From assembly GCA_036253035.1 (NCBI GenBank), contig GCA_036253035.1_4123.1: 64,000 bases of DNA; one strand, written 5' to 3'. This DNA comes from a phage. The notes below the pieces were generated by a model, which saw nothing but the letters and a program-made list of their open reading frames with translations, ran no database searches and was not told where the DNA came from. The position numbers and the translations under genes were made by a program. Of this stretch, positions 10,084-37,776 are shown in pieces (positions within the stretch are counted from its first letter, which is position 1; each line of letters starts with the position of its first letter).

Positions 10084-10288
10084 TAGCAGTAGCAGTACTT
10101 AAAGCACTCAAATACCTCTGTACGGCTTGCTCTTGATGATCTGTACCTAAAAGTATATACACCCATAATTCATTGTAGTGTACATCTTCTGTATAAGGGT
10201 TGTTGTAACTTTTTGATAATATAGCATCAAATTCAGATGCATAATCCCTTGTGAACTTAAACATATCTTGTTGTGTTATGATTCTCAT
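10067..10288 (-). CDS. LGTNYQE-family small protein
   Basis: Core LLGTDHQEQ; start overlaps upstream stop. Confidence 0.65.
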   Translation of the reverse strand: MRIITQQDMFKFTRDYASEFDAILSKSYNNPYTEDVHYNELWVYILLGTDHQEQAVQRYLSALSTATANGVCV

Positions 10289-10500
10289 AACTTTTCCTGT
10301 ATAAGCTTCTTAAGTATTTCTATGTGTGAATTAACAGTTCTTTCTTGATGCTGTGTTCCTAAGAGTGTCAGTACTATCATCTCTGAACGCAAAAGATTTT
10401 TTTCAAGTTCACTTATATCAGTTCTTGAATCAAGTGCCATATATTTGTGATTATTCTTCCTGAATAGTGCCAAGTACTCTTGATTTGATATTATCTTCAT
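10285..10500 (-). CDS. LGTNYQE-family small protein
   Basis: Core LLGTQHQER; 4-nt start/stop overlaps both sides. Confidence 0.65.
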   Translation of the reverse strand: MKIISNQEYLALFRKNNHKYMALDSRTDISELEKNLLRSEMIVLTLLGTQHQERTVNSHIEILKKLIQEKL

Positions 10501-10712
10501 AGTTTACTTTGAATTTCCATTAAAAGTGCTCTAATATGCTCATTGACAAATCTCTCTTGGGAATCTGTGTCTAGGGTGAGAAGCATTCTTAATTCTGAAC
10601 CTCTGATGGTATATTCTAAATCATTCTTTGATTCTCGCATAAGTTTCTGAAAGGATGAGAAGTGTAATCCCATGAGTTCAATGTATTCTGCTGTTCCTAG
10701 TGGTTTTGGCAT
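10497..10712 (-). CDS. LGTNYQE-family small protein
   Basis: Core TLDTDSQER; coupled. Confidence 0.65.
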   Translation of the reverse strand: MPKPLGTAEYIELMGLHFSSFQKLMRESKNDLEYTIRGSELRMLLTLDTDSQERFVNEHIRALLMEIQSKL

Positions 10713-10924
10713 TTTAGTTCAATCGCTCGTTTAAGTGTATTAATATAATCATTAATATTGCATTCTTGATAGTTAGTCCCTAGTGTAGCTTGAACATAGA
10801 TTTCATTTCTCTTAATAATTTTATCCATATCTGGTATATCTGATGTGTTAATAACAAACAACTTCAAAAACAATCCATTTATAATTGTTAGGTATTCTTC
10901 GTCGGTAATCATTCGCATTTGCAT
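10697..10924 (-). CDS. LGTNYQE-family small protein
   Basis: Core TLGTNYQEC; coupled. Confidence 0.65.
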   Translation of the reverse strand: MQMRMITDEEYLTIINGLFLKLFVINTSDIPDMDKIIKRNEIYVQATLGTNYQECNINDYINTLKRAIELKCQNH

Positions 10925-11130
10925 CTTCTCAGTACTGATTCTTTAAGTTCATCAATGTAGTACTCTACATATTCTTCTTGTAGGTTTGTTCCGAGATGTA
11001 ACAGTACTCTTAAATCTGCTCTCAGTACTTCTTTATCATCTTCATCTATATCAGACAGTGTTATGTTTAAGAATTTACTTGAACTCTCTATAAGTAATAT
11101 TACTGAATCACCTTTGCTTAAAATTTTCAT
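10909..11130 (-). CDS. LGTNYQE-family small protein
   Basis: Core HLGTNLQEE; coupled. Confidence 0.65.
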   Translation of the reverse strand: MKILSKGDSVILLIESSSKFLNITLSDIDEDDKEVLRADLRVLLHLGTNLQEEYVEYYIDELKESVLRRCKCE

Positions 11131-11338
11131 AATCTCTTTTTGCTTTCCTCGCCAAAAGGTACATATACGATTCTTCGTATTGTGCTTGGTAGTTTGTGTT
11201 TAAGAGTCGAAACAACTTCTGTTCTGCTAGAACTAGTTGCTTATCTTCATAACAACGATAGCGTATCAACTTTTTGTATTCGATGTTGATTACATCCATT
11301 ACTATAAGCCCATGTTCATCATCTGTCAAGTGTTTCAT
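11108..11338 (-). CDS. LGTNYQE-family small protein
   Basis: Core LLNTNYQAQ; coupled. Confidence 0.6.
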   Translation of the reverse strand: MKHLTDDEHGLIVMDVINIEYKKLIRYRCYEDKQLVLAEQKLFRLLNTNYQAQYEESYMYLLARKAKRDYENFKQR

Positions 11339-11564
11339 GTATCTTTTCCTTAATAGTGATTTTAAGAGATTTAATTATACGTTCAACGTGATACTCCTGC
11401 CTATCAGTTCCAAGAAGGTATGGTAGTGCTTGGAATAGAGCTTCCGCATTCTTTTCCTCTGGGGTTTGGTTTGGGTTGTGAGGAAGTTGATTTGTATATC
11501 TCTTGGCACTAACTAATCTCTCGACGTATTCATTATATGTTAAGTATATCATTTCATTTTGCAT
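11319..11564 (-). CDS. LGTNYQE-family small protein
   Basis: Core LLGTDRQEY; N-terminus MQNEMIY identical to next copy. Confidence 0.65.
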   Translation of the reverse strand: MQNEMIYLTYNEYVERLVSAKRYTNQLPHNPNQTPEEKNAEALFQALPYLLGTDRQEYHVERIIKSLKITIKEKIHETLDR

Positions 11565-11784
11565 TTACTTTTTCCTTAATACTCATCATAAGATGTTCAA
11601 TCATATTTTGAACCATAAATTCTTGTTTATCAGTTCCAAGAACGTATGGTAACTTCTGAAACAATACATTTGCAGATACTTCATATATTGATTGATTTGG
11701 AACGAACTTAAGATTAATGTTTTTTGTTTTTAACATCTTCTCTTGAAATTCTTCATTCGTTATGTATATCATTTCATTTTGCAT
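11554..11784 (-). CDS. LGTNYQE-family small protein
   Basis: Core VLGTDKQEF; N-terminus MQNEMIY. Confidence 0.65.
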   Translation of the reverse strand: MQNEMIYITNEEFQEKMLKTKNINLKFVPNQSIYEVSANVLFQKLPYVLGTDKQEFMVQNMIEHLMMSIKEKVNAK

Positions 11785-12000
11785 TTACATTCTCTCATAT
11801 ATATTTTGGGTTAAAAGGTCAATCCAGATTTCCACATATCGTTGTTGGTGTTGCGTCCCTAACAGTACACCCAACTTAGCTTCACACTCTAATAACAATC
11901 TGGTTTTGTATGGTAGACTTTGAAATCCTATTGTAGCATCTAATTTGGAAATTGCATAGTTGATGCGTATGAACCTTTCTTGTAATGTGATGTTAATCAT
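11785..12000 (-). CDS. LGTNYQE-family small protein
   Basis: Core LLGTQHQQR. Confidence 0.65.
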   Translation of the reverse strand: MINITLQERFIRINYAISKLDATIGFQSLPYKTRLLLECEAKLGVLLGTQHQQRYVEIWIDLLTQNIYERM

Positions 12001-12259
12001 TCCTAGTACACCTTAGTGGGCGGGTCATTTGATGAAAGTACAGCTTACCTCTGATTTCCATTAGTAATTCATTTAATACGAGTTGTACCTCTTGTTCTTG
12101 ATAGTTAGTTCCTAGCATAGCACCCATTATCAACTCACGTATCATAATCATCTTCTTGTCGTGTTTGATTTCTTCGCTGTAATAGATTTCGGTGCGTTTA
12201 GTTGAGATTTTTGCACGTCGCTCGTTATATTCATCTTTACTTAAATTGATCATTTTCAT
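11993..12259 (-). CDS. LGTNYQE-family small protein
   Basis: Core MLGTNYQEQ; start moved to ATG of MKMINLSKDEY (track start is TTG within upstream gene). Confidence 0.6.
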   Translation of the reverse strand: MKMINLSKDEYNERRAKISTKRTEIYYSEEIKHDKKMIMIRELIMGAMLGTNYQEQEVQLVLNELLMEIRGKLYFHQMTRPLRCTRND

Positions 12260-12260
12260 G

Positions 12261-12491
12261 TTAATTACCCTTACATTTATTTTCAATACTATTCATGAGT
12301 TCTTTAAGATAGTTTTTTACCTTACCTGCCTGATAGTTCGTCCCTAGAAAGTTGCACAACTCTGCTTCTATGATTTTGATTTTCCTGATATCAGGCTTCA
12401 ATCTTTTGTTATTGAATATTTGAATCCTTATATCTCTGGATGCATTTAAACGTTTTTGATATTCATGGTAAGTTAAATTAATCATTTTCAT
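12261..12491 (-). CDS. LGTNYQE-family small protein
   Basis: Core FLGTNYQAG; N-terminus MKMINL. Confidence 0.65.
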   Translation of the reverse strand: MKMINLTYHEYQKRLNASRDIRIQIFNNKRLKPDIRKIKIIEAELCNFLGTNYQAGKVKNYLKELMNSIENKCKGN

Positions 12492-12706
12492 TTACGTTTA
12501 ACCTCTCGCTGGAGGGAATCAATTAACATCAGTACCGCATTCTCTTGATAGTTTGTTCCTAAGACTGAAAGCATCTTTATCTCATTTACTAAAATCAACT
12601 TCTTTGAGGGTTCAATAATGTGACTATCATAAACGGCCTTACGTGCTGGATAAGTTTTCGCCAGTATAACATAAAATTCGTCTTTACTTAAATTAATCAT
12701 TTGCAT
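12488..12706 (-). CDS. LGTNYQE-family small protein
   Basis: Core VLGTNYQEN; N-terminus MQMINL. Confidence 0.65.
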   Translation of the reverse strand: MQMINLSKDEFYVILAKTYPARKAVYDSHIIEPSKKLILVNEIKMLSVLGTNYQENAVLMLIDSLQREVKRK

Positions 12707-12915
12707 TTACTTTTAACCTCTTTCTGTAGTGCATCGATCCATAGGTCTACATAAGTGTGTTGATAGTTTGTGCCTAAGAGTGTTAAGACATAAAGTTCAG
12801 TTATCATTATATACTTTCGTTCTTCGGCAATTTTTTTATCCTTTTGAATCATTCTCCTTCTGATTCCACAGGTTTGTAGAAGCTTAACATATTCGAAACC
12901 TATTAATTTTCTCAT
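12697..12915 (-). CDS. LGTNYQE-family small protein
   Basis: Core LLGTNYQHT; start moved to ATG of MRKLIGFEY abutting upstream stop. Confidence 0.6.
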   Translation of the reverse strand: MRKLIGFEYVKLLQTCGIRRRMIQKDKKIAEERKYIMITELYVLTLLGTNYQHTYVDLWIDALQKEVKSKCK

Positions 12916-13127
12916 TTTAAACTCACCGACTTCAGACGTAAGCTGCTTAACCATGCGTCTATGTAGATACTTTGATAGTTTGTCCCAATGAAGAGTAATA
13001 GCTTCATTTCAGCTATTATAACACATCGGTCCGCTTCTGCAATAGAATTATCTAAAAAAGTCCACGAGACTTTTCCTTGTATAGTTCTTAACCTATTGTA
13101 ATACTCATGCTCAGTCAGGATTTTCAT
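12912..13127 (-). CDS. LGTNYQE-family small protein
   Basis: Core FIGTNYQSI; start moved to ATG of MKILTEHEY, preceded by GGAGA. Confidence 0.6.
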   Translation of the reverse strand: MKILTEHEYYNRLRTIQGKVSWTFLDNSIAEADRCVIIAEMKLLLFIGTNYQSIYIDAWLSSLRLKSVSLK

Positions 13128-13374
13128 TCTCACGTCTCCATATCTCGGTTCTAATGTGTTGGCAGTGTGCATCGATGAACATATCTATAGATTTGGTAAT
13201 TGCTGTTTTATCAGTGCCTGTCATCAGTACAAGCATCTCTGCCTCACTATGAATTAAACGCATGATATCATAGGGTAATATTTCAGATACTGTATCATAG
13301 TGTTTTTGTCCTAGATTCTGTAATAGTTTAAAATACATTTTGTGATTTAGTCTTTGTTGCATTGTCTCTTCCAT
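13111..13374 (-). CDS. LGTNYQE-family small protein (divergent)
   Basis: Same size and position in array; core degenerated to LMTGTDKTA; start uncertain. Confidence 0.5.
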   Translation of the reverse strand: MEETMQQRLNHKMYFKLLQNLGQKHYDTVSEILPYDIMRLIHSEAEMLVLMTGTDKTAITKSIDMFIDAHCQHIRTEIWRRENENPD

Positions 13375-13598
13375 TCTCTTTGGGCTTGGCGGGTTTTATC
13401 TGATATTTCGTTTCTCAGTGCAGAGATATATCGTTGAGTGAACAGTTCTTGATAGTTTGTTCCAATGAATTTCATAAGATAAACATCACCGTTGATAACA
13501 TCCAATTCAGGTGCACCATGTAATGCATAGTTTTTTCTAAGGGTGTTAAGAAGAGAGAAGAGGGCAGTCTGATACTCAGTGCTTGATAAAGTCTTCAT
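13347..13598 (-). CDS. LGTNYQE-family small protein
   Basis: Core FIGTNYQEL; start moved to ATG of MKTLSSTEY. Confidence 0.55.
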   Translation of the reverse strand: MKTLSSTEYQTALFSLLNTLRKNYALHGAPELDVINGDVYLMKFIGTNYQELFTQRYISALRNEISDKTRQAQREWKRQCNKD

Positions 13599-16789: not shown

Positions 16790-16889
16790 GGTGAATCTCC
16801 TAACTTTGTGGGCCGTCGCACCATTGCCGCCCTACGAGATACATTATTGCAGTACTGATATACTTTGTCAATACTTTTTCTATTAAAAT

Positions 16890-17105
16890 TTATTTACAGA
16901 ACTGTAGCCCGACTGTGTTCGGATAGTACACACATCTTTCACGCTTACCGCTAAACGCAGATATCCAGGATAATTTGTATGCCACTGGTTCCGGTGCAAG
17001 AGGATTATTTGAATAATCGAGAACTTTAACAATTAAACGGTCCCCAACATACCAGCCAGTTGACTCTTTGATACGGTCGATAATTTCTTGTTTGGTTAAC
17101 GCCAT
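16890..17105 (-). CDS. hypothetical protein (71 aa)
   Basis: Start moved to ATG of MALTKQEI; track GTG start lies inside 5' hairpin. Confidence 0.5.
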   Translation of the reverse strand: MALTKQEIIDRIKESTGWYVGDRLIVKVLDYSNNPLAPEPVAYKLSWISAFSGKRERCVYYPNTVGLQFCK

Positions 17106-17322
17106 TTTATATCTCGCTCTTTTGGAGGTGGGCTGCACTATTGCCGCCCTACGAGATACATTATCTCAGTACTGATATACTTTGTCAATACTTTTTTTGA
17201 AATAGTTTTGAGTACTGGCATTACATCCACCAGCAGATAGTTACTCACCGTTATTAACTATCTTATAGATACTTCTCTGCACCCTGTGGGCTAGTTTTTG
17301 TCTATGCGTATATAATAGCAAA

Positions 17323-17352
17323 GGGACTGACCGGAGTCAATCCCTTTTTTTT
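17323..17352. terminator. intrinsic terminator hairpin (GGGACTGACCGGAGTCAATCCC + T8) with embedded minus-strand TTGACT-N17-TATTAT
   Basis: 9-bp stem with one mismatch, CGGA loop, T-run on plus side; member of 6-copy element family. Confidence 0.55.
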
Positions 17353-17363
17353 ATTCTTTTTTG

Positions 17364-17564
17364 TTAGATGATTCTCCAATCTTCTACCAGGATTTTAATA
17401 TACCGTACCAGTGATTCGAGTGATTCCACTTCCCGATAATCGGTAGCCGTTTGCACTGTACAAGTACAGCCGATCAAGCCATTGCCAAGCTCTTTGATCT
17501 GTACATCGATGCAGTTGGCTTTTGCTTCATTCAGTACTGCAACCAATTCGTTAGCGATTGACAT
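17364..17564 (-). CDS. hypothetical protein (66 aa)
   Basis: ATG with AGGAG RBS; 5' hairpin GCGGGAGAACTATTCCCCCGC and promoter upstream. Confidence 0.6.
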   Translation of the reverse strand: MSIANELVAVLNEAKANCIDVQIKELGNGLIGCTCTVQTATDYREVESLESLVRYIKILVEDWRII

Positions 17565-19060: not shown

Positions 19061-19248
19061 CGTCTTGATTCCTTTTAGTACCAGGGAGAACCATTTCCCC
19101 CTCTCGATATAAAACATTATACGCTCATTGAGATAGTTTGCAAGTACTTTTTATAAAATAGTTTTCAGTACTGAATACTTATATAATAGATACACTTCCG
19201 CACCCTATGGGTCAGTGAGTTATCTCTCAATGAATATATAATAGCAAA

Positions 19249-19276
19249 GGGACTGACTGGAGTCAATCCCTTTTTT
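19249..19276. terminator. intrinsic terminator hairpin with embedded minus-strand promoter
   Basis: GGGACTGACTGGAGTCAATCCC + T6; same element family as 17323. Confidence 0.5.
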
Positions 19277-19284
19277 AATCTTTT

Positions 19285-19869
19285 TTATCGTGTTATAGTT
19301 ATCGCGTTAACATCACGTTTTTTATAGTACTGATTCCAGATATTGCGGGTTAAACCGTAATCAAGTACTTTAATCAAGCCGTTGCGATCCTGGCCGATAT
19401 TCTGTTTTCTGATATCTCTTATCGTTAGTGTGGATAATGTATCATCAACGTGATTGAGAGCATCAGCGAAATGGTGATGGCGTTCTACCGTATTACGTTT
19501 AATATTGTACTTTAACTCATTGCACGCGTTTACATGCTTTACACTGCCTTTGCTTGCAGTACTCAAACGATCCATAACAATAAACAGATTATCAGGATCG
19601 CATAAATGCATATGCACTTTAGCAAAGTACTGTTTAAGGTGCGGACGGTCATAATCTAAAAAATTCCATACCTTACATTCAGTTTCATTTTGTTCTACAC
19701 CCGCATCACAATTCGCGACCTTAATCACTAACCGATCATTTAAAGCGAATACAATACGGGAAGAACCCGCACCGACGATCTCCAGTCCAGCTAACCGACA
19801 AGCTGAAAGGATCTCTTTGTTGGTTTCCATTGCATGAAGTGAACGGATGAATTTAGTATAGTTACGCAT
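19285..19869 (-). CDS. putative protein kinase-like protein (194 aa)
   Basis: Gly-rich loop GAGSSRIVF, VIKVA lysine, catalytic-loop-like IRDIRKQNI, DFG-like VLDYGL; start moved to ATG of MRNYTKF with AAGGAG RBS. Confidence 0.55.
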   Translation of the reverse strand: MRNYTKFIRSLHAMETNKEILSACRLAGLEIVGAGSSRIVFALNDRLVIKVANCDAGVEQNETECKVWNFLDYDRPHLKQYFAKVHMHLCDPDNLFIVMDRLSTASKGSVKHVNACNELKYNIKRNTVERHHHFADALNHVDDTLSTLTIRDIRKQNIGQDRNGLIKVLDYGLTRNIWNQYYKKRDVNAITITR

Positions 19870-19900
19870 TGTGTTGACTCCTTGAGTTAATGAAACTATA

Positions 19901-20143
19901 TTACAGTACTTTACTATCAATGGCAACTACTTTTTTTACTTGAACTGCGTGGAATACTTCACGCGTATTTTTAGTACTGAATACTTTTGCCGTACCTTGT
20001 TCGACCGCAATACGATAGCGACCGTTAACGTCCACCATATTGATAAAGTCCGGTGTACTGAATGGAGTTACCCGGCATTTAAGAACGGTTAACAGTTCCA
20101 CCAGCGTTGTAGTCTCTTTGATACGTTTTTCTAAAGTAATCAT
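19901..20143 (-). CDS. hypothetical protein (80 aa)
   Basis: Start moved to ATG of MITLEKRI downstream of TTGACA-N17-TACTAT; track extension reads through the promoter. Confidence 0.55.
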   Translation of the reverse strand: MITLEKRIKETTTLVELLTVLKCRVTPFSTPDFINMVDVNGRYRIAVEQGTAKVFSTKNTREVFHAVQVKKVVAIDSKVL

Positions 20144-21695: not shown

Positions 21696-21784
21696 TTTAA
21701 TTTCTCTCTTTGTTAGGTGGGGAACTATTCCCCACTTGATGTAAAATATTATACAGTACTAAAAACTATTGTCAAACTATTTTA

Positions 21785-21985
21785 TCAAATTGTTTCCCAT
21801 TTCATGTTACCCGCTTTACGCTGTGAAACAGGAATAAACATGTTATTAATGTTACTAATATAACCGACCTGTAAGTCACGCTGTGAACCATACGCCCGAC
21901 TTGCTGCATTTTTAGCACCGCGTTCTGATTTATAAACGCCGCTGGATACTGTAAAGCCTACTACACCGAAAGTAAAATGTTTCAT
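21785..21985 (-). CDS. hypothetical protein (66 aa)
   Basis: ATG with AGAGGA RBS; TTGACA-N16-TATAAT upstream. Confidence 0.6.
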   Translation of the reverse strand: MKHFTFGVVGFTVSSGVYKSERGAKNAASRAYGSQRDLQVGYISNINNMFIPVSQRKAGNMKWETI

Positions 21986-22270
21986 TTTGTATTCCTCTTT
22001 GTGGTTGATGTAAGTATTATACTCGTTTAATTTCTATTGTCAAACTATTTTATCAGGGGAGGTTTTCGTATGTCTTACTCCTGGACTACTTAACGGGGTT
22101 ACTTATTTCGTTCCCCGTCCTGATGTAAAACATTATACTTGATTCTAAGTACAATGCAAGTACTTTTTAAAAATAGTTTTCAGTACTTGATAGTACTAGC
22201 CACCAGCATATAATAGATACATTTATGCACCCTGTGGGTTAGATTGTTTCTATGCATATATAATAGCAAA

Positions 22271-22298
22271 GGGACTGACCGGAGTCAATCCCTTTTTT
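22271..22298. terminator. intrinsic terminator hairpin with embedded minus-strand promoter
   Basis: GGGACTGACCGGAGTCAATCCC + T6. Confidence 0.5.
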
Positions 22299-22306
22299 AA
22301 ATCTTT

Positions 22307-22456
22307 TTAAACTTGTTTTGGGTTGCGATATGTGATAGCGTTCGGGTACATTTGTTTAATGTTATTCCATGCCTGGTTAACATTGTAACCACTTGATCGA
22401 ATCAGTTGGTTACTTCCTACGCCCTGGAACACTACTTCGAATAAGAATTCTTTCAT
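22307..22456 (-). CDS. hypothetical small protein (49 aa, below track cutoff)
   Basis: Manually translated MKEFLFEVVFQG...; start overlaps stop of upstream small ORF. Confidence 0.4.
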   Translation of the reverse strand: MKEFLFEVVFQGVGSNQLIRSSGYNVNQAWNNIKQMYPNAITYRNPKQV

Positions 22457-23025: not shown

Positions 23026-23349
23026 TTATTCACCTTGTTTGAATTTAGTTTTCTCCATTGATTCCATGATTGCAACCAATACAGCATGGATCTCACTTAA
23101 CGCGGCATCACTAAAAGCATTAATGAATAGGCAATCATTCTCGCGAATATTTTTAATGTACTTATCAGCAGTGGTTGCGAATTCATTCAACGGCAGATCA
23201 AATGCTTTATCCCATAATGGATGGCGTAACTGTAACAGTACTGGATTATCACGGTCACCAGGTGAGAAAGTGCCTGTAATGAAACATACACCAGGGATAC
23301 TTTCGAATTGACAACGAACTTCTTTTGTGATAGTAGTATGAATATACAT
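23026..23349 (-). CDS. hypothetical protein (107 aa)
   Basis: ATG with AGAGGA RBS. Confidence 0.55.
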   Translation of the reverse strand: MYIHTTITKEVRCQFESIPGVCFITGTFSPGDRDNPVLLQLRHPLWDKAFDLPLNEFATTADKYIKNIRENDCLFINAFSDAALSEIHAVLVAIMESMEKTKFKQGE

Positions 23350-23376
23350 TTATTTTTATCCTCTATTAAATTAATA

Positions 23377-24556: not shown

Positions 24557-24618
24557 GATATTATATAGTTACATTTGTGCACCCTATGGGTTAGTGACGT
24601 TCTCGTCTTGATGTAAGT

Positions 24619-25366: not shown

Positions 25367-25449
25367 TTTAGTATTCCTTAGTAGTGTAGTTGATAAAAGT
25401 TATTATGCCAGTACTATCAATCATTGTCAATAGTACTGTGATAATATTT

Positions 25450-25662
25450 TTAGTTAATGATAGTCAGTGTAAAATTGTAATCCCCTGCCTGGTATAGTAC
25501 TTTGTCGCCGAATGTACCAACACGTTTCATATTGCAATAGATACCCATAACACTTTTTACATCTTTGATATTCCGAACGCCTGTGATATCCTTGTTGAAA
25601 TTTTCATGATCAGAAAATAAAACTTGTTTTGCATTTTTCAGTACAGTGCAGATATTAGCCAT
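25450..25662 (-). CDS. hypothetical protein (70 aa)
   Basis: ATG with AGAGAG RBS; 5' hairpin GGGGAGAACTATTCTCCCC; TTGACA-N16-TATAAT. Confidence 0.6.
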   Translation of the reverse strand: MANICTVLKNAKQVLFSDHENFNKDITGVRNIKDVKSVMGIYCNMKRVGTFGDKVLYQAGDYNFTLTIIN

Positions 25663-26097: not shown

Positions 26098-26281
26098 GAT
26101 TTGTTTCCTTATTACCAGGGGAAACCGTTTCCCCTTTCGATGTAAAACATTATACGCTTATTGAGATAGTTTGCAAGTACTTTTTAAAAATAGTTTTCAG
26201 TACTCAAACATTATATAATAGATACACTTATGCACCCTGTGGGCTAGTGAGCTATCTCTCAATGAATATATAATAGCAAAA

Positions 26282-26309
26282 TGGCTGACCGGAGTCAACC
26301 ACTTTTTTC
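26282..26309. terminator. intrinsic terminator hairpin (element family variant)
   Basis: GGCTGACCGGAGTCAACC + T6. Confidence 0.45.
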
Positions 26310-26537
26310 ATTTATTTTTAGCTTTTAGAATCGCCGCCTTTCGCGTCATGCCTTGCTTGATGTATTCCTGTACTTTCGCTTTACGTGCATTCGCTTTATT
26401 TGCTTTCGTAAACGCCGAACAACTTTTATAATTTAAGCCTGTTGGATTCATTTAAATCACCATAAAGAATAGATAGGTTACTAACAATGCCGCGATCAAT
26501 GCACCGACCAGGGCCGAACTATAGTAAGCTAATGATT

Positions 26538-28560: not shown

Positions 28561-28641
28561 TTTAATTTCCTCTTAGTTGTCTTGATAAAATCTATTATGC
28601 CAGTACTATCAATCTATGTCAATAGTACTGTGATAATAATT

Positions 28642-28854
28642 TTACTTACTTTGCTTTGATGCTTTATGTTGTGCAACTGCCATCACTACATCAGTACGAA
28701 CAAAGTTAGCAACCGTATCAGTATAATATTTGATTGCATCGTCAATATCTGCGAACATCCGATACATTCCGCACCATGATACTTTATAACCCGCTTTCAC
28801 TTGTTCAAGTTTAACCAGTGAATTGTTTACTTTGATTTTTGTAATGATAGCCAT
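28642..28854 (-). CDS. hypothetical protein (70 aa)
   Basis: ATG with AGAGGAAA RBS; promoter/UTR is ~85-bp direct duplicate of the one upstream of 28216..28560. Confidence 0.6.
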   Translation of the reverse strand: MAIITKIKVNNSLVKLEQVKAGYKVSWCGMYRMFADIDDAIKYYTDTVANFVRTDVVMAVAQHKASKQSK

Positions 28855-28936
28855 TTTCTTTTTCCTCTTAGTTGTCTTGATAAAATCTATTATGCCAGTA
28901 CTATCAATCTATGTCAATAGTACTGTGATAATAATT

Positions 28937-29080
28937 TTACTTACTTTTTGCTTTCTTTACAGCTTCCACCTGGTCGGCCCACTCTTTACCCCATACTTGA
29001 GCGTTATAGTGATACTGACAAAGAGCAACGCCCCGTTTCAAACCAGTGATAGATTTTTTACCACATTGACAAGTTTTCAT
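28937..29080 (-). CDS. hypothetical Cys-containing small protein (47 aa, below track cutoff)
   Basis: Manually translated MKTCQCGKKSITGLKRGVALCQYHYN...; 5' hairpin and promoter upstream. Confidence 0.45.
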   Translation of the reverse strand: MKTCQCGKKSITGLKRGVALCQYHYNAQVWGKEWADQVEAVKKAKSK

Positions 29081-31024: not shown

Positions 31025-31053
31025 TTGACAACTGCATCCAGTACTGGCATAAT
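31025..31053 (+). promoter_or_regulatory. plus-strand sigma70-like promoter (TTGACA-N17-CATAAT)
   Basis: -35 at 31025-31030, -10 at 31048-31053; downstream transcript would carry dyad ACCCACAGGGTGC and end at hairpin 31134-31151. Confidence 0.5.
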
Positions 31054-31059
31054 ACTTAC

Positions 31060-31160
31060 ATAAAGACGAGATAGTCACTAACCCACAGGGTGCATAGATC
31101 CGTCTATTAAATGATTCAGTACTGCAAAATAAAGGGGATCGTTTGATCCCCTCTGTATTA
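31060..31160 (+). ncRNA. candidate small non-coding RNA (~100 nt)
   Basis: Region between plus-strand promoter and hairpin/U-rich tract; no ORF; contains family dyad motif. Confidence 0.3.
31134..31151. terminator. bidirectional terminator hairpin
   Basis: GGGGATCGTTTGATCCCC flanked by A/T-rich tracts on both sides; downstream of minus gene 31158..31379. Confidence 0.5.
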
Positions 31161-31379
31161 CTTAGTAAGATATAAACAAAAATCACCTTTCTTTGCTACG
31201 CCGCCAGTGTAACGCGATGAATAGTTAGAAACGTCTTGCACTTCTGCAATGACGAGCGTATCATCATTTATTTCGTCGCAAAAACATACTGCGGGATCTT
31301 CTACGCCAATATTGTCAGCATGTGCCCGCATAGATTTAACCAGTGCTTCAAGCTGGGAAAGAGTAGTGATATTAGCCAT
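31158..31379 (-). CDS. hypothetical protein (73 aa)
   Basis: ATG with AAGGAG RBS; hairpin; TTGCAA-N16-TATAAT. Confidence 0.6.
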   Translation of the reverse strand: MANITTLSQLEALVKSMRAHADNIGVEDPAVCFCDEINDDTLVIAEVQDVSNYSSRYTGGVAKKGDFCLYLTK

Positions 31380-32964: not shown

Positions 32965-33263
32965 TTTGTAACCCTCATTCATTAGTTGATGTAAGTATTA
33001 TACGCTTTTACTTTCTATTGTCAAACTATTTTATCAGGGGAGTTTTTCATACGTCTTACTCCTGGACTACTTAACAGGGAGTTACTTATTTCATTCCCCG
33101 TCCTGATGTAAAACATTATACGCCTTTAAACATAGTTTGCAAGTACTTTTTGAAAATAGTTTTTAGTACTTTCCTATAGATACACTCCCGCACCCTATGG
33201 GCTATCGCCTTGTGTCCGGCTTGTAAGTATTATCTCACTAAGCCGGATAACGGTCAAGTACTT

Positions 33264-34646: not shown

Positions 34647-35086
34647 TACTACATAGACGCGAGAAAGCGGATACCCCTGGGGGGTGCGGAATTACGCCCA
34701 AAATTCATATAATTTAAAAAGGATACACTCCCGCACCTTAGCAGGTCATAGCACTTTCTCAGTACTGAATAATAGTATCATAGTACGCCCCAGGATGGCA
34801 AGCAAATTAATTAAAACTTTTTGCGTTTAGGGTATTGCTTTATTTTTTCAGTACTGCTATAATATTTTCATCAAGTCGAGAAAGACTCAAGCCCACCGGG
34901 TGCATAGTTACGCCCAAAATTCAGTACTGAAAAAAATTTTAAAAATATCCGTCCAGGCCGTTGACATTGCCCCCAGTTTATAAGATAATGATTCCAGATT
35001 CAGAAAAATCTAACTCCAGATACTGCGGGGAAACTATCCCCACGCGGTAGGGGAACTATTGGAAAAAACAAAATAAAATTTTGATT

Positions 35087-36650: not shown

Positions 36651-36836
36651 TTAGTGTCTGTATATAAGTAATAGTAAGAATACGTACTGCACATCTTCAT
36701 CTTTAGTATTGAGTACTGTACGTATTGCGTCATTAAACAAGAATATAGTACTTGGGTCATGAGAATTTAAAGGGGTTCTGGGTACGGCATGTTTGTAGTT
36801 CCCTTTAACAAATTGTGTGTAGTATTCTCTATGCAT
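36651..36836 (-). CDS. MHKEYY-family small protein
   Basis: MHREYYTQFVKGNYKH...LLLLIYRH. Confidence 0.6.
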   Translation of the reverse strand: MHREYYTQFVKGNYKHAVPRTPLNSHDPSTIFLFNDAIRTVLNTKDEDVQYVFLLLLIYRH

Positions 36837-36837
36837 A

Positions 36838-37023
36838 TTAGTACCTATATATTAGGGCGAGAATGTAGTACAATTCATATGGAATGTAATTTGGGGTGAT
36901 CGCACACTGTGTATGGTAAATGAATTGTTCGGTATTTTTCTTATCCTTGATATCTATTGGGATTAGTGGTATAAGCATTTGGGAGTTTAGATCCAGATGG
37001 CTTAAGTAGAATTCTTTATGCAT
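36838..37023 (-). CDS. MHKEYY-family small protein
   Basis: MHKEFYLSHL...ILALIYRY. Confidence 0.6.
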   Translation of the reverse strand: MHKEFYLSHLDLNSQMLIPLIPIDIKDKKNTEQFIYHTQCAITPNYIPYELYYILALIYRY

Positions 37024-37032
37024 ATTGTTCTC

Positions 37033-37221
37033 TTAGAATACGAAAGCTAGGTACAGGGTATGATACAGTACTCGATGATAGCTGTCAAAATCTAGTATAC
37101 ATGCTTTAGTGCACATAGTAAAATACACTTTATCATTTTGTGCATTGATACCGCGAGGTTTATCTAATAGATTAGTTCTGAGGTACATTGGGAAATATTT
37201 TGTGTAGTATTCTTTATGCAT
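37033..37221 (-). CDS. MHKEYY-family small protein
   Basis: Start moved to ATG of MHKEYYTKYFPMYL abutting upstream stop. Confidence 0.55.
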   Translation of the reverse strand: MHKEYYTKYFPMYLRTNLLDKPRGINAQNDKVYFTMCTKACILDFDSYHRVLYHTLYLAFVF

Positions 37222-37222
37222 G

Positions 37223-37405
37223 TTAGTACCTGAATATAAGTAGGATAGTGTTATATAGCTGGTCATAACTACTACTATTTTCTATACTTCGTTCTATGCA
37301 GTTATTGAATCCCAGTACTGCCAAATCGTTATCCAGGGGGACTTTGTATCTGGCGTAGTGTTCAAAAATGCTGGGGAGAAATTGTGTGTAGTATTCTTTG
37401 TGCAT
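37223..37405 (-). CDS. MHKEYY-family small protein
   Basis: MHKEYYTQFLPSIFEHY...ILLIFRY. Confidence 0.6.
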   Translation of the reverse strand: MHKEYYTQFLPSIFEHYARYKVPLDNDLAVLGFNNCIERSIENSSSYDQLYNTILLIFRY

Positions 37406-37406
37406 A

Positions 37407-37592
37407 TTAGTACCTATATATTAGTAAAAGGATGTGATACAGTACTCGATTATAGTCTTCAATATATATCGAGGATTTAGTGCACTGAATGAAGTAGTCT
37501 TTTTCGTAGTTTTTTTCTATACCCAATGGTTCTGTTGGTACAAGGTGTTGGAGATACATTGGGAGTTTCTCTATGTAGTATTCTTTATACAT
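37407..37592 (-). CDS. MHKEYY-family small protein
   Basis: MYKEYYIEKLPMYLQHLVPTEPLGI...LLLIYRY. Confidence 0.6.
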   Translation of the reverse strand: MYKEYYIEKLPMYLQHLVPTEPLGIEKNYEKDYFIQCTKSSIYIEDYNRVLYHILLLIYRY

Positions 37593-37593
37593 G

Positions 37594-37776
37594 TTAGTAC
37601 CTGAATGTTAACATTACTACGTAGTACAGCATATATGGATTATCATCGTATATGAGCGTGTACTTAGTACATTGTTGAAACATTATCTTTGCGTGATCTT
37701 TTATTCCTATTGGTTCTGTTGGTATATGGTGCTGGAGATGCATTGGGAGATGTTCCCTGTAGTATTCTTTATACAT
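37594..37776 (-). CDS. MHKEYY-family small protein
   Basis: Start moved to ATG of MYKEYYREHLPMHLQHHIPTEPIGI. Confidence 0.55.
   Translation of the reverse strand: MYKEYYREHLPMHLQHHIPTEPIGIKDHAKIMFQQCTKYTLIYDDNPYMLYYVVMLTFRY

Follow-up and report, generated by a model that had tools for sequence, protein, structure and literature searches.

Promoter early stem-loop elements (PeSLs) of T4-like phages combine a strong sigma-70-like promoter, an AT-rich upstream region with the stop codon of the previous gene and a terminating stem-loop, and they are followed by a Shine-Dalgarno (SD) sequence and a start codon; the stem-loop has five possible positions, overlap with the -35 box included (PMC2839356, PMC4122927). 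In phages RB49 and phi1, the reduction of read-through by a PeSL stem-loop was comparable to that by rrnB T1 (Arbiol et al. 2010, PMC2839356), clones acquired promoter mutations owing to the great strength of the promoters, and recombination between neighbouring PeSLs generated mini-circles (PMC2839356). These elements have been proposed to mediate cassette shuffling (PMC2839356). In phages nt-1 and KVP40, PeSL stem-loops follow the consensus A3-4 G3-loop-C3 T3-4 and the promoters that of TTGYVH-N17-TAWWAT (Comeau, Arbiol and Krisch 2014, PMC4122927). Here we have analysed six sites of comparable build in a stretch of phage DNA of 64,000 nucleotides (nt) (NCBI GenBank assembly GCA_036253035.1, contig GCA_036253035.1_4123.1; the whole stretch is hereafter the window). 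We consider, with a probability of roughly 0.8, that these sites are PeSL-type composite terminator-promoter cassettes, acting wholly on the minus strand in early regions of small open reading frames (ORFs).

The six elements are the complete set in the window, yet they are not identical copies. The initial annotation had reported one 31-nt sequence at six sites. Two sites, 17320-17350 and 22268-22298, match this 31-mer exactly and a third, 19246-19276, differs at one position (shuffled sequences gave zero matches). The remaining copies, near 26278, 61636 and 63594, have diverged and keep 27-28 of the 31 positions, with one or two indels. The coordinates originally assigned mark the GGG and are offset, this triplet lying 3 nt into the 31-mer. 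All six have in common the minus-strand core TTGACTYCGGTC, for which shuffles predict 0.2 occurrences against the 6 found. We have scanned the window, on both strands and with filters off, using a covariance model trained on five of its copies and four copies from viral contigs. The scan returned exactly six elements with 65-70 bits, all on the minus strand, and the next-best hits were the plus-strand images of the same six (14-28 bits). Thus, six related elements do lie at these sites, with the exact 31-mer confined to two of them.

Read on the minus strand, every copy presents the same order of parts: stop codon, A-run, hairpin, U-run, G-C (or G-T) and TATTAT/TATAAT. The upstream stop codons lie 3-20 nt before the stem and the A-runs measure 5-8 nt, which corresponds to the AT-rich upstream region of PeSLs. 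The hairpin is 20-22 nt long, with 8-9 G/C-rich pairs, extendable to 12 by A:U pairs, and a UCCG, UUCG or UCCA loop. It is followed by a U-run of 3 nt in copies 1-3, 4 nt in copy 4 and 5 nt in copies 5-6. The predicted promoter is built into this structure: TTGAC forms the inner half of the 5' arm, the final T of the -35 box is the first loop base, and the spacer consists of the hairpin 3' arm and the U-run. The promoter scan gave TTGACT-17-TATTAT for copies 1-4 and TTGACT-18-TATAAT for copies 5-6, and a TGn precedes the -10 box at all six, making it an extended -10. The minus-strand TTGACT at 17-18 nt from TATTAT/TATAAT was, hence, found at all six sites just as the initial annotation had it.

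Copies 1-3 constitute type 1, copies 5-6 constitute type 2, and copy 4 is a stem variant. Copy 1 spans 17308-17355 on the minus strand, as do all coordinates in this paragraph, with the A-tract at 17345-17352, the stem-loop at 17323-17344 (17320-17347 with the A:U extension), the -35 TTGACT at 17335-17340, a 17-nt spacer ending in TGc and the -10 TATTAT at 17312-17317; the upstream stop codon is a TAA at 17364-17366. Copy 2 (19234-19281; hairpin 19249-19270, -35 19261-19266, -10 TATTAT 19238-19243) has the loop TCCA instead of TCCG, and its upstream ORF (19285-19926) ends 14 nt before the stem. In copy 3 (22256-22303), the hairpin is at 22271-22292, the -35 at 22283-22288 and the -10 TATTAT at 22260-22265, downstream of an ORF of 49 amino acids with its stop codon at 22309-22311. 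Copy 4 (26266-26313; hairpin 26282-26301, -35 26293-26298, -10 TATTAT 26270-26275) is a variant whose stem, TGGTTGAC/GTCAGCCA, departs from type 1 by compensatory changes, and it follows a small ORF that stops at a TGA (26310-26312). Copy 5 (61621-61669) reads GGGTTGAC TTCG GTCGGCCC, with two G·U pairs; its hairpin is at 61638-61657, its -35 at 61649-61654 and, after an 18-nt spacer, its -10 TATAAT at 61625-61630, followed by the SD sequence and ATG of ORF 60823-61596, with ORF 61667-63316 (stop codon at 61667) upstream. Copy 6 (63579-63627; hairpin 63596-63615, -35 63607-63612, -10 TATAAT 63583-63588) precedes the SD sequence and ATG of ORF 63326-63556, and the upstream ORF 63626-63958 stops at 63626. 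In both type-2 copies the SD sequence and ATG come 20-25 nt after the -10 box.

Based on sequence identity, the window belongs to Asteriusvirus and derives from a 121Q-like jumbo Escherichia coli phage. Its 16-23 kb region is 98.5% identical to Escherichia phage 121Q (Asteriusvirus, 348.5-kb genome) and 88-94% identical to PBECO4, phAPEC6, G17 and other jumbo coliphages. In the 121Q annotation, every coding sequence (CDS) in the equivalent of window 11-28 kb lies on the minus strand of the window, nearly all of them encoding small hypothetical proteins, and those annotated in the equivalent of 57.3-64 kb are likewise all on the minus strand. The GC skew agrees with this annotation, indicating minus-strand coding up to ~36 kb, plus-strand coding at 36-57 kb and minus-strand coding thereafter. 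The region holds dozens of minus-strand ORFs of 50-200 amino acids, hypothetical in 121Q, which is the variable-region setting of PeSLs.

We have compared the two strands as possible carriers of the terminator. The folding energies are -16.9 to -21.9 kcal/mol (z -5.0 to -6.5) for minus-strand RNA, in line with the stable stem of PeSLs, and -6.4 to -16.4 kcal/mol for plus-strand RNA, the minus strand being better by 5.5-10.5 kcal/mol in all six copies. The plus stem is weaker because the imperfect pairs, which are G·U on the minus strand, turn there into one or two C·A mismatches. A terminator scan called copies 1-4 on the minus strand only, and the GenBank records of G17 and GAP32 carry rho-independent terminators predicted by ARNold on these same hairpins, on the gene strand. 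Among 89 distinct copies (public viral contigs, nt-1 and ValKK3), gathered with a covariance model built on the promoter strand, the stem cells comprised 885 Watson-Crick, 123 G·U and 6 A·C combinations, with 84 of the 123 G·U cells coming from one inherited pair (39 against 6 without that position).

This bias bears on a reading in which the elements are promoters only, the inverted repeat being a DNA-level feature, such as a cruciform or a dimeric regulator's operator, through which the promoter is controlled with no RNA terminator involved. The inverted repeat does span the -35 box and the spacer, a typical place for a repressor operator, and the short minus-strand U-run of copies 1-3 would also suit it. 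However, a DNA palindrome predicts no strand bias, against the 123 to 6 observed (or 39 to 6). Furthermore, the loops vary freely (TTCG, TCCG, TTAG, GAGA, ACAT and others) with the pairing kept, the flanking A-run and T-run and the place just after stop codons fit a terminator, and the published PeSL stem-loop lowered read-through to about the extent of rrnB T1. We have found this the least probable of the readings weighed.

The initial annotation had put a canonical intrinsic terminator on the plus side. The plus-strand hairpin plus T8 would then stop antisense transcription, the minus strand would be promoter only and the two functions would face opposite ways. A plus-strand hairpin and T-run do exist, the latter being long in copies 1-3 (T6-T8). 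We have calculated a d'Aubenton-Carafa-style score with modern energy parameters, which for copies 1-6 was 30.2, 10.1, 5.5, -36.3, -8.1 and -2.7 on the plus strand and 3.7, -4.3, 4.0, 6.7, 14.0 and 17.4 on the minus strand. The minus-strand score was above zero in five of the six copies, if marginal for copies 1-3. A plus-strand terminator could thus apply to copies 1-3 only, where the plus scores are positive. Plus-strand promoters also occur within the minus-strand region, at ~31025 and ~34835, and a strong plus-strand promoter-like site, TTGATA-16-TATAAT (11/12 matches), lies at 22187-22214, ~55 nt before copy 3. Against this stand the C·A mismatches and poorer folds of every plus stem, the negative plus scores of copies 4-6, the lean of the wobble pairs towards the promoter strand in the 89 relatives, the gene-strand ARNold features, and the lack of annotated plus-strand genes here. 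When upstream plus promoters were sought for each copy, copy 3 alone had a convincing one, and a general plus-strand terminator role was rejected on this point. We regard the opposite-strand arrangement as unlikely.

A terminator and a promoter arranged in series on the same (minus) strand are supported by the minus-strand genes, the fold energies, the excess of G·U over A·C and the gene-strand ARNold features, and only this gene-strand reading fits all six copies. Copies 1-3 may be weak or moderate attenuators on the gene strand, or bidirectional. They share with bidirectional intrinsic terminators a hairpin placed between an A-run and a T-run, and the Carafa-style index rates them as terminators on both strands, with copy 2 below zero on the minus strand. 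However, classic bidirectional terminators lie between convergent genes, whereas both flanking genes are co-directional here, and the present stem is asymmetric, with G·U on one strand and C·A on the other.

The coupling of the promoter half to the hairpin was investigated by scanning IMG/VR for the hairpin only (GGRTTGACTYCGGTCRGYCC), with all downstream bases free, which gave 54 distinct viral-contig copies. A -10-like hexamer was present at spacer 17 or 18 in 50 of the 54, with TGn in 45 of those 50, and at the other offsets (5-59) never more than 4 copies had one. An SD sequence and a start codon were found in 43 of the 54 copies (median 32 nt after the -10 box), and the 10 nt upstream averaged 64% A. 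Within the window, the flanks of types 1 and 2 diverge right after the -10 box, with the -10 itself kept. Moreover, the 5' arm TTGAC is invariant and its partner arm varies (GTCAG, GTCGG, GTCAA), as expected if the 5' arm were doubly constrained. Comparative data thus couple the predicted promoter half to the hairpin. They speak against the hairpins being terminators only, ending minus-strand transcripts, with TTGACT and TATWAT as by-products of the A/T-rich context and the palindromic stem. Such a reading is favoured by several genome records that annotate these sites only as terminators, and by the self-complementarity of TTGAC/GTCAA, owing to which a stem built from TTGAC automatically contains a -35-like word. 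It leaves unexplained, however, the fixed hexamer spacing with its TGn, the -10 box retained between types despite diverging flanks and the invariant TTGAC arm with its variable partner; in addition, published PeSLs of like build drove strong reporter expression, and their clones gained promoter mutations. We therefore judge it very improbable.

The predicted promoters resemble sigma-70 promoters with an UP element and an extended -10, with which they share TTGACT (5/6), a 17-18 nt spacer, TGn, TATTAT/TATAAT and an A-run upstream of the -35 box. This A-run sits where an UP element would lie. They would differ from ordinary sigma-70 promoters in that the -35 box and the spacer double as RNA hairpin arms. 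UP-like elements have been noted in the related phage CBB, where Estrem et al. 1998 is cited (PMC5259590).

The closest likeness was found with the PeSLs of nt-1 and KVP40. The nt-1 intergenic sequences at 51-56 kb, a region named in PMC4122927, contain AAAAGGGTTGC-TTCG-GCAGCCCTTTTTTGTTATTCT and similar sequences, and further examples, TAAAAGGGTTGCTTCGGCAGCCCTTTTTTGTTATTCTACAT and GAAAAGGGTTGCACTATGCAGCCCTTTTTAGTATTATATCTACATC, have the same build as the window elements, G·U pair included. Our covariance model, which did not have nt-1 in its training, recovered nt-1 elements at 39.1 and 32.1 bits. The sequences are nearly alike, and the shared layout is stop codon, A3-4, GGG-TTGnn, loop, nnCAGCCC, T3-5, (T)GnTATTAT, ACATC, SD and ATG, with the G·U at the same stem position and the -35 within the 5' arm. 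As in the window, the nt-1/KVP40 elements are intergenic between small co-directional ORFans and lie at indel or replacement boundaries. The window elements differ in belonging to an Asteriusvirus jumbo coliphage and not to Straboviridae, in having TTGACT and not TTGCnn as -35, and in that copies 1-4 lead into a conserved leader and a second promoter instead of straight to an SD sequence and start codon. The window thus lies outside the T4-like hosts of described PeSLs, these being their described range and not a mechanistic requirement.

With the RB49/phi1 PeSLs, the elements share a near-consensus sigma-70 early promoter, the AT-rich upstream region, a terminating stem-loop and an ORFan-rich variable setting. 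RB49/phi1 stems are, however, typically Gn-loop-Cn and most often lie between the -35 box and the -10 or over the latter, unlike those of the window, and promoter activity, terminator activity and mini-circles were demonstrated experimentally there, whereas both activities are predicted for the window elements. The window has 52 minus-strand promoter-like sites with at least 10/12 matches, and 28 of these carry a hairpin: in 17 it is of the GGGGAGAAATGGTTCTCCCC type and lies just past the -10, in 9 it covers the -35 and in 2 it covers the -10. Two of the RB49/phi1 stem positions, over the -35 and downstream of the -10, are therefore present, in 9 and 17 promoters. The nine hairpins overlapping the -35 are the six elements studied here and three of an AGTACT type.

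These three make up a separate promoter family, with CAGTACTATTGACATAGATTGATAGTACTG over the -35: two members, 28566-28652 and 28861-28947, are identical over 87 nt and 295 nt apart, and the third is at 25374-25460. Between 16.4 and 35.6 kb, the minus strand also carries ~30 further early-promoter repeats (TTGACA or TTGCAA, 16 nt, TATAAT, TACATC; for example 26106-26186 and 21719-21794), of which 17 have the GGGGAGAAATGGTTCTCCCC-type hairpin between the -10 and the SD sequence, another described PeSL position.

The element is widely distributed. BLAST with copy 5 as query matched 173 phage records, from phages of Vibrio, Escherichia, Aeromonas, Klebsiella, Cronobacter, Pectobacterium, Salmonella, Erwinia and others. 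Full-length model matches were obtained in Cronobacter phage CR3 (Vequintavirinae), Aeromonas phage 65 (Straboviridae), Klebsiella phage phiKp_21 (Alcyoneusvirus), Xanthomonas phage XbC2 and GAP32 (Mimasvirus). Each of them lies between two co-directional annotated CDS, and the last part of the upstream CDS can extend into its A-rich 5' end. The cassette, being present near-verbatim in at least five phage lineages, could move between families.

We have compared the loci of relatives for synteny breakpoints. Colinear homology from 57000 onwards ends inside copy 5, at 61664 with 121Q and at 61661 with G17, and the homology with ECO103 4-12-1 ends at 61635. For 121Q, G17 and CRJP21, homology ends at 63618-63622, which is the edge of copy 6. 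Copies 5 and 6 thus show the boundary hallmark of PeSLs at nucleotide resolution. The slot between them (61665-63314) holds an ORF of 549 amino acids, with no Pfam family, in the window and in CRJP21, gp222 and the endonuclease gp221 in 121Q, and a RaK2_00499-like gene in G17. Around copies 1-4, breakpoints relative to 121Q, phAPEC6, PBECO4 and CMSTMSU fall on other promoter repeats. For instance, an ORF of 82 amino acids (16890-17138; segment 16887-17134), missing in phAPEC6, PBECO4 and CMSTMSU, lies between two 52-nt direct promoter repeats (16830-16881 and 17147-17198). Comparison of the 121Q orthologue of copy 3 (L047, ~locus 11562) with window 22227-22303 and 17279-17355 showed an apparent chimera, like copy 1 in its 5' flank and early leader and like copy 3 in its later leader and 3' part, which suggests gene conversion between copies.

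Two further ORFs were noted in these comparisons. One, of 107 amino acids (23026-23349), forms a single-gene cassette (23028-23376) that is missing in 121Q and phAPEC6. The other, ORF 63626-63958 upstream of copy 6, has no DNA match in the fetched 121Q, G17 and CRJP21 loci and gives a sub-threshold match to MUG113 (GIY-YIG-like).

Under the PeSL-type reading, we infer actual termination, its efficiency, initiation and recombination at the element to proceed as follows. A-run, hairpin and U-run would be transcribed in turn by the polymerase coming from the upstream gene. In the RNA, the hairpin with its U-run would act as an intrinsic terminator or attenuator, with release within the promoter spacer; the transcript would end ~25-30 nt before the next start, and minus-strand 3' ends would fall in the UUUGCU/UUUUUGCU run. 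The same bases as duplex DNA (A-run, TTGACT, TGn, TATWAT) would bind the host sigma-70 holoenzyme and start a new transcript, the "UG" that closes the U-run region being the TG of the extended -10 (TGnTATTAT or TGnTATAAT); primary 5' ends are expected 6-9 nt past TATTAT/TATAAT. Each small early gene would in this way be insulated from read-through, avoid promoter occlusion and have its own strong early promoter. Gene, promoter and terminator would make a portable unit whose repeated ends could recombine, the recurring ~45-nt cassette offering homology for recombination that swaps cargo genes between phages. The dual end-and-restart function proposed for the element by the initial annotation is, hence, supported by comparative evidence, here for a piece of ~45 nt; its opposite-strand layout was not.

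Several points weigh against the PeSL-type reading, besides the single inherited pair and the promoter-strand model that lie behind the wobble counts given above. In copies 1-3 the minus-strand U-run is short (UUUGCUAUUAU) and the Carafa-style score is higher on the plus strand. Copies 1-4 do not stand directly before an SD sequence and start codon, as a leader of 60-110 nt and a second promoter come first, unlike in classic PeSLs. No synteny breakpoint against 121Q, phAPEC6, PBECO4 and CMSTMSU was found on copies 1-4 themselves, and the endonuclease gp221 in the 121Q slot makes homing an alternative cause of the 121Q swap. Finally, a literature search for Asteriusvirus transcript 5' or 3' end data found none. 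The literature on 121Q, PBECO4, phAPEC6, CBB, RaK2 and GAP32 gave only predicted RpoD-like promoters and ARNold terminators, presented separately.

The second promoter (P2) downstream of copies 1-4 has its own 5' hairpin, SD sequence and gene. After copy 1 it is TTGACA-17-GATAAT at 17160-17188, and after copies 2, 4 and 3 it is TTGCAA-16-TATAAT at 19116-19143, 26149-26176 and ~22142-22165, respectively (all minus strand). Because P2 is present downstream, the type-1 copies would be the upstream members of tandem promoters.

The conserved 16-nt leader motif CUA(A/G)CCCAYAGGGUGC stands 21-26 nt past the -10 box of each of copies 1-4. After copy 1 it reads CUAGCCCACAGGGUGC (17279-17294, minus strand), 21 nt downstream of the -10, and after copies 2, 3 and 4 it lies at 19200-19215, 22227-22242 and 26232-26247 (minus). 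Within the six elements, the motif belongs to the type-1 transcribed unit (copies 1-4) only. The window contains its core CCCAYNGGGTGC 8 times (0.03 expected), the other sites being 24579-24594 and 33190-33205 on the minus strand, and 31078-31093 and 34888-34903 on the plus strand, antisense to genes. All eight sites follow a sigma-70-like -10 by 21-28 nt and are oriented with transcription, behind several promoter types; the four not following copies 1-4 are 27-28 nt after the -10 of other early promoters. The motif recurs behind promoters in RaK2-, GAP32- and 121Q-like jumbo-phage contigs. Matches inside the coding sequence of unrelated viral contigs were set aside as chance.

A larger RNA structure around the leader motif was sought and rejected, the flank duplex reaching -5.76 kcal/mol against -4.79 kcal/mol for shuffles and single-sequence folds being inconsistent. 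We thus describe the leader motif, from its predicted fold, as a conserved short motif with a 3-bp mini-hairpin, and claim nothing larger. Very tentatively, it might serve as a so far uncharacterised signal in RNA, such as a nut- or put-like antitermination tag for bypassing downstream hairpins, or constitute the conserved 5' domain in a family of phage small RNAs. Other candidate leads are a protein-binding site and a small-RNA seed.

In related contigs, the motif was also observed as convergent pairs, in which facing promoters ~110-120 nt apart are each followed by the motif (L016, ~114/182; L024, 3549/3617; L058, 8050/911; L061, 11288/1248; L066, 1691; L077, 6060); the window has no such pair. 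Either transcript of a pair would fold into a long hairpin of -45 to -62 kcal/mol. On the plus strand of the window, a unit at 31025-31153, inside a minus-strand gene region, consists of a promoter (TTGACA-17-CATAAT with TGn), the leader motif and the hairpin AGGGGATCGTTTGATCCCCT; 121Q has an orthologous unit (L074). Judged from its layout, the window unit resembles a stand-alone, antisense-oriented small RNA of ~100 nt. The hairpin AGGGGATCGTTTGATCCCCT has its good U-run on the minus strand and would therefore be the terminator of ORF 31158-31379. Another plus-strand unit (34830-35060) has a promoter, the motif, a second promoter (TTGACA-17-GATAAT) and the hairpin GGGGAAACTATCCCC. It lies in a gene-poor stretch (34.4-36.3 kb) just before the coding-strand switch at ~36 kb, and near it is a 63-nt repeat family with four copies (36810-37628). 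Transcription from the plus-strand promoter-like site at 22187-22214, in turn, would cross the leader motif and stop at the plus-strand hairpin and T6, yielding an antisense RNA of ~80 nt.

Regarding the surrounding genes, none of ten flanking proteins reached the curated Pfam cut-off: six were without any match and four had weak matches only. One of the flanking ORFs, 19285-19926 (213 amino acids, minus strand), directly upstream of copy 2, gave a weak, sub-threshold Pkinase match (17.4 bits, cut-off 31.7). Rfam was searched with the whole window at gathering scores and with 16-36 kb at E values up to 5, and no family matched the elements or the leader motif; a search for tRNA and tmRNA genes found none.

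Two gene arrays were also seen. On the plus strand, at 39.9-55.0 kb, there is a tandem array of about a dozen paralogous genes of ~1.2 kb, annotated in relatives as RCC1-like "regulator of chromosome condensation", each with a conserved upstream TATTAAATATAGTATAATGAATAAAGGAGG and a conserved N-terminus (MLPFGRMIKYGNIAP-like). On the minus strand, at 10133-13488 and 14.2-15.5 kb, there are a 40-nt repeat family with spacings that are multiples of ~212 nt and a run of ORFs of ~70 amino acids whose stop and start codons overlap, which indicates a family of small paralogous early genes. In records of relatives with direct terminal repeats (G17, WPEC3, vB_Ec-M-J and others), the type-1 copies are doubled, at 8 places and not 4, and in the record of one relative the copy-1 orthologue lies inside the annotated "Direct Terminal Repeats". 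It follows from this placement and the doubling that at least the copy-1 region is within the terminal repeat of these phages.

The design described here is already known from PeSLs and opens no new kind of mechanism; it is found here in a phage group where it had not previously been named, our literature search having found no paper that applies the PeSL concept to this jumbo-phage group. The six elements extend the PeSL design from T4-like phages to Asteriusvirus, and the model also finds it in Alcyoneusvirus, Mimasvirus and Vequintavirinae. For annotation, they would mark the end of one transcription unit and the start of the next in a single 45-nt piece, which current records give at most as a terminator. 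One DNA stretch would serve as RNA structure for one polymerase and as promoter for the next, and could provide a small insulating part for synthetic biology. Our results support the idea that compact plug-and-play regulatory cassettes help phages to swap small accessory genes.

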